From NCBI GenBank assembly GCA_965231215.1, contig OZ246423.1, forward strand, positions 704,001 to 768,000: 64,000 bases of DNA, given 5' to 3'. The DNA comes from Candidatus Altimarinota bacterium (GTDB taxonomy: Bacteria; Patescibacteriota; Gracilibacteria; UBA4473). Position 1 is the first letter of the stretch. Every line of letters begins with the position of its first letter. The notes below the pieces were generated by a model. It was given only the letters and a program-made list of their open reading frames with translations. It was not told where the DNA came from and searched no databases. Below, one piece after another: positions 36,832 through 42,600 of the stretch. The translations under genes and the position numbers were made by a program.

Positions 36832-39466
36832 GTTTAGCTTTGGTTTCTTCTAGTTCATCCCTGGTTTGTTGAACCAGGTGTGGAGGGGCTTTTTCCGTGT
36901 AATCAGTATTAGAAAGTCTCCCCTCTAGCGCGGTAATAGATTTTTTGAGAGCTTCAATGGCTTTGATTTGCCGATTTTTATCCACTGGAATTTCTACATT
37001 TAACGCTAGATTCCCTTCAATAATTTGAGCCGCATTTTTACTGGTTTGGCCAAAATTTAGCCCCGCTAAAACTTCAATTAATTTTTGAGTTTCGGTATCT
37101 TCGATATTGCCTGAGACCATAAGTTTTTCTTTTGGATTGAGTTTGTTATCGGCGCGAAGTGACCGAATTTGAGTAATCACATTCTGGAGCATTTCAAAGG
37201 ACTTTTCAGCTGTTTCATCTTTGAAATTGAGTTCAGGGTACTCGCTTTGGATAAGCATTTTGTAGCCGAGTTCCTGCCATAGTTTTTCCGTAACAAATGG
37301 GCAGAGAGGATGGGTGAGTTTTAGAATTTCTTTTAGCACAAAGTTCAAAATTGTCGGATTAGATTGCACCTTGTTCGCCTCTAGATACCAATCACAAAAT
37401 TCTCCCCAGACAAAGTGATAGATTTTGTCTCCAGCCGCAGAAATGTCATATTTTTCTAAGTGGTCAGAAACTTCATTCGATACGTGTGAGAGCCTCGAAA
37501 GAATCCACCTATCGGCAAGAGATTCAGGCATAACAGTGTCCGAAATTTCCTTGCCTTCTGTCTGCATTTGTACGAATCGTGTAGCGTTCCAGAGCTTATT
37601 CACGAAGTTTCGATATCCTTTGATTTTGTTCCTCCCAATAGGAATTTTTTGTCCTGGAGTCGATCCGATAACCAAAGCCAAACGTACAGGATCAGCTCCG
37701 TATTCTGAAATCATCTCAAGTGGATCAATCCCATTGCCTTTAGATTTAGACATTTTTTTGCCGTGCTCATCGGTGACCATTCCATGAAGATACACGGTGT
37801 GGAATGGGTATTTTCCAGTAGCGTAACGTCCGAACATAATCATTCGAAGTACCCAAAAGGTTAAAATATCCCAACCGGTTTCGAGTACGTCAGTTGGGTA
37901 AAATTTTTGGAAATCAGGAGTATTTTCATTCGGCCAGCCCAAAGTTGAAAACGGCCATAAAGCCGAACTAAACCAGGTATCTAAAGTATCTTCATCCTGG
38001 CGCAGATTGAGTGTTTCTTGTTCTGGTGTTAGAAATCCTGTGGCGACGATATTGTCGTTTTCATCATACCAAACTGGGATTCGGTGTCCCCACCAGATTT
38101 GACGTGAAATACACCAGTCTTGGAGATTGTCTGTCCATTGAAAATAACCTTTTTCAAAACGTTTGGGAATAATATTTACATCCTCATTTTTAACCGCATC
38201 AGCGGTTAGCTTGCAAAGTGTTGTTGTTTCTCCGGTGTGTTTATCGGTAAATTCTTTATTAACCATTACAAACCACTGTGGAGAAATCATGGGTTCTACC
38301 ACGCATCCAGATCTATAACAGAGTGGTGTTCTGTGGGTGTAGTCTTTCTCAACTCCCACCAGCAACCCCATGTCTTCCATGCATTTTCCAGATTTTTTCC
38401 GGGCTTCTTCTACACTTAGGCCTTCGCAAGGTCCGGCAACGGAGGTCATTTTCCCTTTAAAATCAATCTTTTGGATAAAGGTTTCATCCAGACCTTTTCG
38501 TTTGGCCAGATCATAATCGTCGGCAGAATGTGAAGATGAAATGGTCATAGCGCCGGCGCCTTTTTCTGGATCAATTACCTCGTCGGCTATTACATAAAAA
38601 GATCTTTTGGCCGCGTAAGTACCGTACTCAAATTTAGTCCCCTCTAGGTCTTTACCAGTAAAAGTGTCTACCACTTCATACTCCGCCTCCGGATCAAGGA
38701 AGTTGAGGGTCTTAAAAAACTTTTCTTTATCGTTCCAGAGGTTTTCAATCACCATCAAGGTTTCATCCCCAAATTTGATTCGATGATATTTTGATTCTGG
38801 ATGAACCACTAGGGGACTATCGGCACACTTGGTTTCAGGACGCACGGTTCCGATCACAAATTCACCACATCGGATGTAGTAGAAAGGCTCTTTCACTTCT
38901 TCCCACTCAAGCTCATCATCTGATAACACTGATTGGGCCCCTACAGACCAGTTGATGAGTCGGTGTCCTCGCTCAATAAGCCCATCATCATACAACTTTT
39001 TAAAGATGTAATTTACCGCATAATTTCGTTTTTCATCAAAGGTATAGGCCTCCCGCGACCAGTCCAGCCACGATCCCATTTTTTTCATTTGATTGATGAT
39101 GTTGTCGTGTTTTTCATTTGCAAAAATTCGACAGTCATCCAGAAACGCTTCACGGTTTGGCCACTCTTCCCTAGATTTTTTTCCGTGATGTTTAATCACC
39201 ACATTTTCGGTGGCGATAGCGGCATGATCTGTTCCAGGAAGCCAAAGGACTTCATGCCCTTTCATGGCTTTGTATCGAGTCAAAATATCTTCAATAGCCA
39301 GCATTGCGGCGTGACCTAAATGGAGATTTCCTGTTACATTTGGAGGAGGCAATGGGATAGCAAACGGAGGTTTCTCTGAATTGGGGTTAGCCGTCATCGC
39401 TCCACTTTGTGCCCAGGTGGCGTAGATTTTATCTTCAGAGGATATATGATCGTAGGCTTTGTCCAT
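36815..39466 (-). CDS. valS: Valine--tRNA ligase
   Basis: PPPNVTGNLHLGH, DWCISRQIWWGH, KMSKS; C-terminal coiled coil. Confidence 0.98.
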   Translation of the reverse strand: MDKAYDHISSEDKIYATWAQSGAMTANPNSEKPPFAIPLPPPNVTGNLHLGHAAMLAIEDILTRYKAMKGHEVLWLPGTDHAAIATENVVIKHHGKKSREEWPNREAFLDDCRIFANEKHDNIINQMKKMGSWLDWSREAYTFDEKRNYAVNYIFKKLYDDGLIERGHRLINWSVGAQSVLSDDELEWEEVKEPFYYIRCGEFVIGTVRPETKCADSPLVVHPESKYHRIKFGDETLMVIENLWNDKEKFFKTLNFLDPEAEYEVVDTFTGKDLEGTKFEYGTYAAKRSFYVIADEVIDPEKGAGAMTISSSHSADDYDLAKRKGLDETFIQKIDFKGKMTSVAGPCEGLSVEEARKKSGKCMEDMGLLVGVEKDYTHRTPLCYRSGCVVEPMISPQWFVMVNKEFTDKHTGETTTLCKLTADAVKNEDVNIIPKRFEKGYFQWTDNLQDWCISRQIWWGHRIPVWYDENDNIVATGFLTPEQETLNLRQDEDTLDTWFSSALWPFSTLGWPNENTPDFQKFYPTDVLETGWDILTFWVLRMIMFGRYATGKYPFHTVYLHGMVTDEHGKKMSKSKGNGIDPLEMISEYGADPVRLALVIGSTPGQKIPIGRNKIKGYRNFVNKLWNATRFVQMQTEGKEISDTVMPESLADRWILSRLSHVSNEVSDHLEKYDISAAGDKIYHFVWGEFCDWYLEANKVQSNPTILNFVLKEILKLTHPLCPFVTEKLWQELGYKMLIQSEYPELNFKDETAEKSFEMLQNVITQIRSLRADNKLNPKEKLMVSGNIEDTETQKLIEVLAGLNFGQTSKNAAQIIEGNLALNVEIPVDKNRQIKAIEALKKSITALEGRLSNTDYTEKAPPHLVQQTRDELEETKAKLAKLS

Positions 39467-39491
39467 GGATTATTTTTAATAGGTATATTAT

Positions 39492-39517
39492 AAAAAACTC
39501 GCTAAAATACAGCGAGC
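39492..39517 (-). terminator. Attenuator terminator in the valS leader
   Basis: GCUCGCU-guauuuu-AGCGAGU followed by a U-tract, about 25 nt before the valS ATG. Confidence 0.8.
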
Positions 39518-39543
39518 TAAATGGGGGGAAAACTCGCTTTGAT

Positions 39544-39579
39544 TTAAACGTTTACGACTACCACAAAAGGCTGTCTCAT
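39544..39579 (-). CDS. valS leader peptide MRQPFVVVVNV
   Basis: ATG AGA CAG CCT TTT GTG GTA GTC GTA AAC GTT TAA; 5 of the last 6 sense codons are Val. Confidence 0.85.
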   Translation of the reverse strand: MRQPFVVVVNV

Positions 39580-39589
39580 TTCACGGGGA

Positions 39590-39618
39590 AATGTACGCTT
39601 GGAGCTTAGTTTTGTCAA
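39590..39618 (-). promoter_or_regulatory. Sigma70 promoter of the valS leader
   Basis: TTGACA-17-TACATT, ending 10 nt before the leader ATG. Confidence 0.8.
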
Positions 39619-39693
39619 ATTTTCAACAAGATTAAATTTGAGTAAAGAGAACTTGCAAAAAAACAAAAATATTCTAAATTAATCGCAAAAATT

Positions 39694-42600
39694 ATGGAAC
39701 CCTTGCGAGAACATACAGATTTTCGATCTATAAATCTATACCAAGTTATGGGTCAGATTTTGACCCCAGAGATGAGGGGATGGGTTGATGAAAACATTGA
39801 AAGGGCCAACCAAACCTTAGAAAAGCTGGTAGCAATCAGCCAAAGCCCAGACACAAAAGAGCATCTAGAATTTGCAGACTTTCAGAAGGTAATGGAAGCG
39901 GATGGGAGACTAGATCCACTCTTCCCTATGTTCTGCCAAGATCCGACACTCATGGCTAGAAATGAGATTGACCCAGAGACAACATTGAAGGTGGTGACTG
40001 ATATGATTGTGGTATACAGGCGTGCTTATCAAGAAGGGCGTAATGAATTAATTATTCCTCCTTCATTTCCGGCCGGATTCCTGTTCAAGGAAAAAAAGAA
40101 GCGATACACAATAAAGGTTTCAGAATTGTTAGATTTACTTTTTGGGAATCCTCTAGGGTGTTTTTATGGTGAAGTTGATCTTTCATTGGCCGATATTGAA
40201 GAGAATGCCACTAAAAAAGTATGGGCCTCAAGAGCCAGTAAACAGAGACCAAAAACTCCCAAAAAACTAACACAAGAGTCTATTGTAATGGATATTAAGG
40301 ATGAAGAATCTACACAAAAGTTTTTAAAGAAACTCATGGAACCAGTTCAGCATCAAGCTATTCGTCGGTTTGGACAGATGAGTGATCAAGAATTTAGAAA
40401 AAACCCTCACTATATTTTTGCTTTGTTAGCGTTCCCTGAATTCTTTCGATCTAAAAAATTTCGAGAAAGCGATATAAAAGAAGCTTTATTGGATACTTTT
40501 AGTTTTCTTATCTGTTTTAATAAATTGGGTTTAGTCGATCTTAGCGAAATTTTTATAGTACCAGAACTAGAATCTTTATGGAGATTTTTCTTTACAAGGC
40601 ATAAAGAGATTTTAGCTGATGAATCCTCAGATCTTCGTTATTTGGTCTTTGAAACCATCTTTGGAGGAAAAGAAACCCTTCCTAATAGCCTAATGAATAT
40701 TTTGACTAAAGCGAATCAGGTAAAGCGATGCTCTCAGAAGGTTCCTAGAAAAGTAAAACGTGCAATAAGAAGGAGCCCTGAAAGGCAACCTGCCTCAACT
40801 GGACAGCCTACAGATGCATGCAAAAAAAGGGAAGCTAAAGTAGCAGAGAATTCAAGGCTATCAGCACCACTTCTTGATGATAAAGAGGACTTAGAGAAAA
40901 AATTTTCTCGTGGTGAATTTGAATTTTCCATTTCCCAAAAACCTGATGAGGCTCAAATTCTGTGGGTTCATACAGGAAGGGGGCCGGAGGAATCTTGGCA
41001 GAAAATTGAGCTCAGACCAGAAGTTCAAAATTATAGTTTTCGTGGGCCAAGTTATAAAAGAAACAAGGAATACACAGTAAAGTTTGCTTATGGTTCAGAT
41101 CAATTTCCAAAAAACCGATCTCAAGAAGTTGCCGAGATTAATTTTACCTATGAACCAACTGAAAAAGTGGCTTCATCACCTACAACCTCAACGCCATCAC
41201 AAGCAGATAATCCACCCCCTTCCGCAGACATTAAATCCGATGATAATGCATCATTGGCTATTAAAGGCCCTCAAAAGCCTCCAGAGGAAACCCTCACAAC
41301 TTGTGCGGAAGGAGAGGCACTAGCGATACTTTTGTATGAAATTCAAAACTTTAATTTGGAAATTGTCCAAGAGTTTGTAACAACCTGTTTTCAAAAAGTC
41401 TACATAAAAGATAGTAGAGCTCTTTTTGAACTAAAAGGGCTAGAAAAATTCTTTAAAAGCAGCTTTCAGCATAAAGACCTAGCGGAAGCTTTAGAAGTAA
41501 GAAATAAATGGGGAGGTAAAACTCTATGTGTGGATTTTGAAGCGAAGACAGTGTGTTTGAGACTCGGAATTGATAAGAATAGAATAATGCTTTCCAGAGA
41601 ACTTTTTTTTGCCTTTTCAGAAATATTAAGAGGGGATCTTTCATTGTTACAACCGTTAGCAAAAAAACAAGAGATCATCGATAAAGAACTTGATGAAATC
41701 CATCGATTCGAACATGAGCGGTCAAAGCTTTTCCGAAAACTAGAAGAAGCTATAATAAATTTTAGGCGCTTTAGTCCAACTCAATGGCAAGGTCATGCTG
41801 CTTCTTATCAGGGGCCTGATACTCGGTTTATTTTAGAGAAAAAAGCCAAAAATTTTCCTTATAACTATCCTCAAATAAAATCCCTTAGAACCGAACTTAA
41901 TTCAGCAGGTATATTGTTTCGATTGGATTCTAATGGTAGTGTGCTGTTTGAACTAAAAATCCCAGATAAAAACGGATCAGCATGTCGTTTTAGGGTTAGT
42001 TTTAGAGAAGATTTTTCTTTTAGTTTAGAAAATGGAACTCGGCCTCTTTCTCCAACCTGGATGGAGGAGGTAAAGAAAATTGGGCGTGGAATCATGGCTT
42101 GTTTGTGTAATCTTATTATAGAGGCTGGAGACCTCCCAGCACACAGACAAGCGGATCGTGAATTAAAAGGTTTAAAGGCAGGTGCACAGAAATATAAAGA
42201 TAACCTTCATTTCCATCAAAAAAGACGGAAAAAAGCTGAAGCAAAAGACAGCGTATCCACGCCTGGGAAACCAAGTTCAAGCAGAGATTTGGTTAGTATT
42301 ATGATCAATAAATATAGGAGAGGTGGTGATTTCAGGGTCCCCGTTTATGATCGCCATACAGGGCAAATGGTTGGTTATAAAATTAGAAAGTTTGAAGCTA
42401 TAGAACCTGATGAGTCAGTGTTATTTCGAGATTTTGCACTTTGCTTTCCAGGGGAGGAGCAGGAAAGAGGCTTAGCGGAAGATGAAATTGAAGTTAAAAA
42501 CTTAAAAAATCCGCACGAAAAAAGGGTTGTTCAGGCACAGATTAAAAGAAAATATGAAGAGATTAGGGAGCGTCTTACGGAGAGAAATAAAAAGTACTTA

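Follow-up and report, generated by a model that had tools for sequence, protein, structure and literature searches.

Upstream of the valyl-tRNA synthetase gene valS, in a 64,000-nucleotide stretch of Candidatus Altimarinota DNA (contig OZ246423.1, positions 704,001 to 768,000; the whole stretch is referred to here as the window), we have identified a compact leader consisting of a predicted promoter, an 11-codon upstream open reading frame (uORF) with a run of valine codons, and three short segments that can form either of two mutually exclusive RNA helices, the second of which resembles an intrinsic terminator. Comparison with related genomes makes it probable that the leader attenuates transcription through a leader peptide and the ribosome translating it, and so adjusts valS expression to the charging of tRNA-Val. 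Indeed, the leader combines the features by which such attenuators are recognized, namely a cognate-codon uORF, a terminator before the gene, an antiterminator exclusive with it and fitting spacing. The original prediction for this DNA had read here a promoter of the form TTGACA-17-TACATT, an 11-residue uORF using all four Val codons, a segment starting 5 nt past its stop and able to form 8 bp, and a mutually exclusive terminator with a U-tract about 25 nt before valS; every one of these elements was recovered. The host had also been described as resembling the Candidate Phyla Radiation (CPR), and this too is borne out, its group being that of the Peribacteria and Gracilibacteria: the nearest valS-bearing relatives compared belong to Candidatus Altimarinota, Candidatus Peribacteria and Candidatus Gracilibacteria, all of the CPR group. 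The host genome comprises one contig of 1.33 Mb with 40% G+C. The CPR, or Patescibacteria, are uncultured bacteria with small genomes that are generally described as having little regulation.

All leader elements are read on the minus strand, and their positions in the window are collected in Table 1. The product of valS contains the Pfam families tRNA-synt_1, Anticodon_1 and Val_tRNA-synt_C and scores 864 bits against NCBIfam model NF004349 (cut-off 704), in agreement with the gene assignment made at the outset. The −10 hexamer of the predicted promoter, P1, lies 10 nt before the ATG of the uORF, and the P1 transcript is predicted to have a very short 5′ untranslated region (UTR) of roughly 0–5 nt. 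Within the uORF, which is separated by 77 nt from valS on the same strand, the regulatory Val run of four codons (GTG GTA GTC GTA) is followed by a fifth Val codon, GTT, so that all four synonymous codons occur. Segment 2 can pair with segment 1 to give an antiterminator of 8 bp or with segment 3 to give a terminator of 9 bp, and 8 of its nucleotides are common to both helices. The first two T's of the six-T run are the last two of segment 3, and the valS ATG follows 25 nt beyond the T-run. The upstream neighbour of valS is a divergent open reading frame (ORF) on the plus strand, in which no Pfam family was found at E ≤ 0.001, and the leader hairpin therefore terminates no upstream gene.

The expectation that related valS upstream regions would contain Val-codon uORFs was confirmed in a survey of the family, which here means the whole order and comprises 43 species genomes. 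The valS N-terminus was located in 42 of these, up to 400 nt upstream was read, and a Val-run uORF was defined as having three or more Val codons in a row and no more than 40 codons in all. Such uORFs, with the same layout behind them, were found in 13 of the 42 genomes from eight genera (the window's genus, with all five of its genomes, and seven more), a count that, like the others across relatives, is inflated by shared ancestry. In all 13 leaders the start-to-stop frame is kept and the Val run, of 3–5 residues, ends 1–4 codons ahead of the stop, with the peptide outside the run variable (for example MKNSFVVVVVNL, MKLSVVVVVNPT and MNQPVVVVVTPN) and the residues flanking it unconserved. The codons of the 13 runs are GTC (22), GTG (17), GTA (13) and GTT (5), where Val codon usage in the window's own genome is GTT 0.29, GTC 0.13, GTA 0.36 and GTG 0.22. 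Because GT is fixed and the third base is free, the conserved feature of the run appears to be the amino acid or its tRNA and not the nucleotides. Aragorn lists 35 tRNA genes in the genome, two of them for tRNA-Val with anticodons GAC and UAC, and the Val run of the window has codons for both. Three further genomes (G048, G055 and G056) have mixed Val/Ile uORFs and three segments recognizable by eye; they failed the rule of at least 6 bp for the antiterminator and are not among the 13. In genus g2, a terminator-like hairpin with the same GCGAG core, followed by TACAAT, was observed within the 45 nt preceding valS in G005, G044 and G046 and by eye in G045 (loci L015, L123, L125 and L124). In these genomes no Val-rich uORF or antiterminator was found in the region before valS, and the arrangement may be a decayed attenuator or a different one.

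The three segments recur in all 13 leaders. Segments 1 and 2 form an ungapped helix of 7–8 bp, segments 2 and 3 one of 6–9 bp, and 5–8 nt of segment 2 are common to both helices in every case, which makes them mutually exclusive. The loop between segments 1 and 2 measures 12–18 nt and that of the terminator 3–7 nt, after which comes the T-run, ending 53–63 nt from the uORF stop. In most of the 13 leaders, segment 3 repeats segment 1 directly, around a conserved GCGAG core. In the window both states could be folded, as had been anticipated, with helix energies of −11.5 kcal/mol for the terminator hairpin and −10.3 kcal/mol for the antiterminator. In the minimum free energy (MFE) fold of the leader (−21.7 kcal/mol, z = −2.33; 7 of 200 shuffles were as stable or more so), segments 1 and 2 are paired in their 8-bp helix. 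Where automatic folding resolved the two hairpins separately, the antiterminator came to about −6 to −14 kcal/mol and the terminator to about −9 to −14 kcal/mol; in three of the 13 leaders (G001, G002 and G018) this procedure assigned the helices wrongly, and the table of ungapped helices was used instead. When the sequences were shuffled with the T-run kept, the three-segment arrangement arose in 25 of 26,000 shuffles over the 13 leaders and in one of 2,000 shuffles of the window's post-stop region, figures that overstate the case somewhat since the criteria were taken from the observed cases and the control is thus somewhat circular. The layout had originally been assigned to the trp/his/ilv/pheST type. 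The antiterminator/terminator logic of that assignment stands; the protector region is absent, the MFE fold showing a weak hairpin as the only structure inside the uORF, so that the protector or pause pairing of the four-segment trp/his type is replaced by an arrangement of three segments only. By analogy, the logic of the valS leader would be that of trp, his and pheST minus the first of the four classical regions.

Our working hypothesis is that transcription from P1 would give an RNA whose 5′ end coincides with the AUG of the leader ORF or lies a few bases ahead of it. With charged Val-tRNA plentiful, the translating ribosome would reach the stop codon and its footprint would mask segment 1, 5 nt further on, so that segments 2 and 3 would form the terminator and RNA polymerase would stop at the U-tract 25 nt ahead of valS. 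With charged tRNA-Val scarce, the ribosome would stall in the four-codon Val run, 15–26 nt upstream of segment 1, which would then be free to pair with segment 2; no terminator would form and transcription would continue into valS. It is known from toeprinting and profiling that a ribosome covers about 12–14 nt 3′ of the first base of the A-site codon. The gap between the stop and segment 1 is 3–7 nt in 12 of the 13 leaders and 12 nt in the remaining one (G014), and with gaps of 3–7 nt a footprint of that size at the stop would hide the first half of segment 1. The opening Val codon of the run could be placed in 12 leaders, at 24–33 nt ahead of segment 1, and in the window segment 1 begins 15 nt beyond the run's last codon. 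Given a footprint size drawn from general knowledge, the geometry thus fits both masking by a ribosome at the stop and a free segment 1 when a ribosome stalls in the Val run, as the original model had proposed.

Covarying stems had also been anticipated, and here the outcome was mixed. In the trimmed alignments of the antiterminator (A2) and the terminator (A3), each of 13 rows with none dropped, 76.9 and 84.6% of the cells, respectively, are paired, compared with 26–51 and 33–47% for slid partners. The covariation scores, 0.209 for A2 and 0.282 for A3, were reached by 9 of 500 and 4 of 500 shuffles. Three rows (G023, G020 and G018) are out of register with the others and are partly counted as unpaired, which depresses these figures; an untrimmed MAFFT alignment (A1) of everything past the stop, in which two sequences were wrongly aligned, did not enter the pair counts. 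The clearest compensatory site is the antiterminator pair flanking the core, which is A-U in six sequences and G-C in five. Some compensatory change was therefore found, and pairs changed on both sides stayed within the range of the shuffles (see below). Covariation support is real but modest.

A further line of evidence is the match between residue and gene. Upstream of valS, Val runs were found in 13 and Thr runs in one of the 42 family genomes, and upstream of thrS, for which 30 of the 43 family genomes gave loci, Thr runs were found in 22 and Val runs in one; related genomes are not independent in this cross-control, and the pattern covers many genera. In the window's own genome, a scan for cognate uORFs before aminoacyl-tRNA synthetase (aaRS) genes, as suggested at the outset, showed that thrS is preceded by a leader laid out in the same way, with a Thr-rich uORF and segments CCTGGAG, CTCCGGG and CCTGGAG followed by nine T's. 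Pfam and Rfam searches of this genome gave 19 aaRS-type ORFs, and a cognate-rich uORF was found at valS and thrS only; the 17 others, some of them below the cut-off, had none, the HisRS and tetrameric GlyRS families not having been searched separately. Likewise, a strict scan of the genome in which the 5′ arm of the terminator had also to pair upstream gave five sites, of which only valS and thrS had an enriched uORF. Elsewhere in the class, Thr-run leaders were seen before thrS in four further families (six of 40 genomes sampled), so that among the class genomes sampled the thrS leader is more widespread than that of valS.

The start of the leader RNA is predicted from the promoter-like sequences. 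All 13 valS leaders, and 17 of 22 thrS leaders, have an element of the form TTGACN-16/17-TAnnnT that ends 4–12 nt ahead of the uORF; the leader RNA is predicted from these positions to begin at or a few bases before the start codon, and hence to be nearly leaderless. A Shine–Dalgarno (SD)-like word precedes the uORF in one of the 13 valS leaders. In the window's own genome such words stand before 12 of 345 long ORFs, compared with 9.5% of random 17-mers, and a 12-base anti-SD motif was not found there, so that translation initiation appears to be SD-independent in this organism. The lack of an SD before the uORF is unremarkable, as the genome as a whole is without SD motifs. Intrinsic termination, for its part, seems to be in use: of 319 terminator-like hairpins, 125 fall in the 11% of the genome outside long ORFs, an enrichment that suggests as much, and 67 lie directly past a same-strand stop.

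Several observations weigh against attenuation as the explanation of this leader. The Val run is missing from 29 of the 42 family genomes and its distribution is patchy even within genera that have it (two of three genomes in g18, one of two in g20); in some of the genomes without a leader valS lies close behind another gene, and the valS leader is evolutionarily labile. Beyond the family, 40 genomes representing 13 further families of the class were sampled, and one of them has a Val run, at −260 to −191, where it is probably due to chance. Pairs changed on both sides number four in the antiterminator and three in the terminator, counts reached by 151 and 142 of 500 shuffles, respectively, and so not beyond chance; the helix cores GCGAG/CTCGC are largely invariant, and the relatedness of the sequences inflates the covariation tests. 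The T-run is only six T's long. In the MFE fold no partner for segment 1 was found within the uORF and no pause hairpin is evident, so that the untranslated leader, which folds to the antiterminator by default, should read through by default, and the proposed mechanism consequently needs tight coupling of translation to transcription with prompt loading of ribosomes. Three sequencing runs contain the locus, all from one study, with no RNA run among them. Finally, the −10-like hexamer behind the T-run could drive valS without the attenuator.

This last point leads to the first of the alternatives, namely that valS is transcribed mainly or wholly from a second promoter consisting of the −10-like TATAAT only, with the upstream unit minor or giving a separate short transcript, for a small RNA or peptide, that stops at the terminator. 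We consider this improbable. A TAnnnT hexamer does stand directly after the T-run in 10 of the 13 valS leaders, compared with 54 of the 319 terminator-like hairpins of the genome and two of 19 thrS leaders, and eight of the 10 hexamers end 7–12 nt before the valS ATG, as P1 is spaced from the uORF; yet these 10 cases are related and could go back to a small number of evolutionary events. A −35 element is lacking, since segment 2 (CTCGCY) occupies the position 17 nt upstream, and the two-hexamer promoter scan lists nothing at the hexamer. Moreover, a stand-alone transcript leaves unexplained why Val runs precede valS and Thr runs precede thrS, and why the spacing from stop to segment 1 is fixed. 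The hexamer could be a weak second promoter for basal expression of an essential gene, which is compatible with the attenuator and not opposed to it, or could be an inherited quirk.

Attenuation might instead sense general translation capacity, readthrough following whenever ribosomes slow down on the leader or do not initiate there, with the Val run incidental or serving peptide-mediated stalling. The absence of a protector helix, through which the untranslated state already favours the antiterminator, is in keeping with such a role, and the run, being hydrophobic, might conceivably act from within the exit tunnel. We nevertheless regard this as very improbable, because the residue matches the gene in both directions in the valS and thrS comparison and does so again for leuA and DAHP synthase in the window's own genome (see below), and because the residues flanking the Val run are unconserved.

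A valine-responsive attenuator read by the ribosome is also to be set against a switch in which a trans-acting factor chooses between the helices, be it uncharged tRNA-Val in the manner of a T-box, ValRS itself or a protein recognizing the repeated GCGAG. The direct repeat of segments 1 and 3, with its conserved core, would suit such a factor, and Firmicutes control most of their aaRS genes by T-boxes (PMC1262725; this and the other publications cited were consulted in part). However, an Rfam search of positions 38900–40200 of the window at E ≤ 10 gave weak matches to unrelated families and no T-box, the best match at the valS leader (E = 1.7) being to an unrelated small RNA model below its gathering score, and the T-box model RF00230 had no match in the whole genome at E ≤ 0.001, in a search whose control matched five of 14 control genomes. 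At E ≤ 0.1 no Rfam family was found on the thrS, leuA, DAHP synthase, proB-like and PEP carboxylase leaders or in the ileS upstream region. The 53–63 nt from stop to T-run are too short for a T-box, the model of which has 219 positions, the thrS leaders have a different core (GGAG/CTCC) with no common protein motif evident, and a trans-acting factor leaves unexplained both the synonymous variation of the Val run and its fixed distance to segment 1. This explanation is more improbable still. Chance, in the form of a functionless short ORF and hairpin in an AT-rich intergenic region, has a negligible probability: the uORF scan of the genome does give 94 entries (many of them nested starts) beside the 319 hairpins, but the same order and spacing recur in 13 genomes of eight genera, arise in shuffles at the low rate given above, and uORFs with at least four Val in six residues occur at only three loci of the scan, valS included.

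The valS leader is not the only one of its kind in this genome. A scan that was blind to composition, and looked in order for a strong promoter, a uORF 4–13 nt on, a terminator-like hairpin and a long ORF, gave five sites among 117 promoter-like sites, each with a uORF rich in one type of residue: those of valS (Val), thrS (Thr), DAHP synthase (Phe/Tyr/Trp), PEP carboxylase (Asn) and a small methyltransferase (Met). It misses a Leu-run leader before leuA, the stem of which is bulged, and a Pro-rich leader before a proB-like gene, with a loop of 10 nt. The segments of the Pro-rich leader (AGCGAGTGG, CACTCGCT and AGCGAGT) share the core of valS, and the genes behind it encode a glutamate-5-kinase-like protein (below the NCBIfam cut-off) and an RhtB-type exporter, followed by argS. 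The methyltransferase gene heads a cluster that ends with serine hydroxymethyltransferase (SHMT), and a second Met-rich uORF follows the methyltransferase gene. Among RNA mechanisms that sense amino acids, near-leaderless, SD-independent leader-peptide attenuation could be the principal one in this CPR class, replacing T-boxes and forming a lineage-wide set; we put this forward tentatively and would ourselves lean slightly against it. Pairings in the proposed set that were not found in print are those of Val with valS, Thr with thrS (in the family and in at least four further families), Asn with PEP carboxylase, Phe/Tyr/Trp with DAHP synthase, Pro with the glutamate-5-kinase-like gene, the exporter gene and argS, and Met with the cluster from methyltransferase to SHMT. 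Such a set, if true, would imply tight coupling of transcription and translation in bacteria usually called regulation-poor.

Table 1. Positions of the valS leader elements, neighbouring ORFs and other leaders of the same genome. Unprefixed positions are those of the window; the others are given as locus:positions.
Feature	Position	Strand	Basis or remark
Divergent ORF, 1,076 aa	39694-42924	plus	
Predicted promoter P1, TTGACA	39618-39613	minus	Consensus promoter scan, 10/12 matches
Predicted promoter P1, TACATT	39595-39590	minus	Spacer of 17 nt to TTGACA
Antisense ORF, 66 aa	39409-39609	plus	Rejected as a gene
Leader uORF MRQPFVVVVNV, 11 codons + stop	39579-39544 (ATG 39579, TAA 39546-39544)	minus	Sequence reading
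Val run GTG GTA GTC GTA	39564-39553	minus	
Fifth Val codon GTT	39549-39547	minus	
Segment 1 AGCGAGTT, antiterminator 5′ arm	39538-39531	minus	Starts 5 nt past uORF stop
Segment 2 AGCTCGCT, shared strand	39518-39511	minus	
Segment 2, 9-nt extent AGCTCGCTG	39518-39510	minus	
Terminator-like hairpin, 9 pairs, T's behind	39518-39496	minus	Consensus terminator scan
Segment 3 AGCGAGTT, terminator 3′ arm	39503-39496	minus	
Segment 3, 9-nt extent TAGCGAGTT	39504-39496	minus	
Six-T run	39497-39492	minus	
TATAAT, −10-like hexamer	39492-39487	minus	Starts on last T of T-run, 20 nt before valS ATG
valS, valine--tRNA ligase, 883 aa	36815-39466 (ATG 39466)	minus	Pfam + NCBIfam
Fatty-acid-hydroxylase-family ORF, 262 aa	36043-36831	minus	TTG start as listed
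thrS leader, Thr-rich MQNTTNTTTAKAG	L111:126-239 (own genome C1:655326-655439)	plus	uORF + three segments
Leader before DAHP synthase, aromatic-rich MQKFFYGFFYFWFNRGLA	L113:82-211	plus	uORF + terminator-like hairpin
Leader before archaeal-type PEP carboxylase (PF14010), Asn-rich MFLTNIKTANNNRNVFRAV	L248:89-209	plus	uORF + terminator-like hairpin
Leader before small methyltransferase, Met-rich MQNLSMAMTMMMTSLKRSGRISA	L115:4282-4423	minus	Strong terminator
Leader before leuA, Leu-run MKNFSLLLLLTLEIRAV	L112:1646-1771	minus	uORF scan + terminator-like hairpin
Leader before glutamate-5-kinase-like gene, Pro-rich MKNLIVVPAPRPPQN	L114:76-211	plus	uORF + three segments

A number of further observations concern valS and its surroundings. 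The hydroxylase-family ORF overlaps the 3′ end of valS by 17 nt, which suggests that the two are co-transcribed, and on that account it may stand under the same attenuator. The ORF antisense to the leader was considered as a gene and rejected: it has no Pfam match at E ≤ 1 and no conserved counterpart, antisense ORFs of at least 40 aa being present in three of the 13 leaders at differing positions (in a scan that took in 12 nt of valS and did not list the window's own antisense ORF). The ValRS match breaks between residues ~473 and ~484 in many members of the family (for example at loci L006–L010), within an open frame of ~1,050–1,280 aa, compared with 883 in the window, which suggests that these relatives carry an insertion of roughly 170–400 aa that is absent from the ValRS of the window. 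In several other families of the class, valS and thrS contain numerous in-frame TGA codons (as many as 13 in 230 residues), which would fit reassignment of TGA there; no in-frame TGA was found in the valS and thrS matches of the window's family.

The mechanism proposed here, and its use for aaRS genes, are already known; what is new is the target valS, the CPR phylum and the minimal three-segment, probably leaderless, form. The advance extends a textbook mechanism to a further target gene and a further phylum and is not one of principle. As the original prediction had supposed, literature searches gave no work joining leader peptides and attenuators with the Candidate Phyla Radiation. A search for Patescibacteria with leader peptide gave bacteriocin leader peptides only, in the part of the literature covered, and no word starting 'attenuat', 'leader' or 'riboswitch' occurs in the portion consulted of the Peribacteria genome paper. 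Nothing relevant emerged from a search for valS or valyl-tRNA synthetase with leader peptide, within the same partial coverage, in which a published list for Deinococcus (PMC4007540, Table S9) may include valS. A conserved valS switch and a wider thrS switch would mean, if the comparative evidence is read correctly, that these organisms monitor tRNA charging gene by gene, and the two leaders suggest close coupling of translation to transcription and SD-less initiation, probably on near-leaderless RNAs. Leader ORFs of 10–25 codons are invisible to gene callers, and the search for cognate-codon uORFs offers a simple route to regulated genes, promoters and terminators in uncultured lineages.

Among the systems already described, pheST is the proteobacterial example of an aaRS attenuator (PMC1262725), and in E. 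coli and other gamma-proteobacteria it shares with the valS leader tandem cognate codons, the alternative of antiterminator and terminator and a cognate aaRS as target. It differs in that the valS leader uses Val, has three segments without a protector helix and no SD, and has a predicted 5′ UTR of a few nucleotides. Firmicutes valS T-boxes follow the same logic, low charging of the cognate tRNA leading to antitermination and more synthetase, whereas their sensor is an RNA that binds uncharged tRNA without translation; no T-box is detectable at the valS leader. In bacilli, leader-peptide attenuators are also associated with hisS paralogues (PMC2965389). Closer in form are the Streptomyces leaders, with candidate attenuators before leuS and trpS (PMC1262725) and leaderless leader peptides before alaS, thrS, trpS and leuS in Streptomyces lividans (PMC8079986, Table 4): like that of valS, for which a start at the 5′ end is predicted, they are short ORFs at the 5′ end, enriched in cognate codons, before single aaRS genes and with hairpins behind. 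Several of them have few cognate codons or no U-tract, in contrast to the 3–5 Val and the hairpin with T-run of the valS leaders, and they belong to Actinobacteria, with valS not among the cases compared, whereas the present leaders are from the CPR. Polycysteine leaderless short ORFs of mycobacteria, described as cysteine-responsive attenuators (bioRxiv 10.1101/834739), join a leaderless start, which is predicted for valS too, to a run of a single residue and control downstream genes, with a different amino acid and different targets. The nearest parallel to the genome as a whole is perhaps Deinococcus deserti, in which leader peptides have been described for fourteen tRNA synthetase and biosynthesis genes, cysS included (PMC4007540); there, as predicted here, leaderless cognate-rich leaders that gene callers had missed occur across the genome, in an organism that relies heavily on leaderless mRNAs and whose transcription starts were mapped by differential RNA sequencing, where those of the present leaders are predicted.

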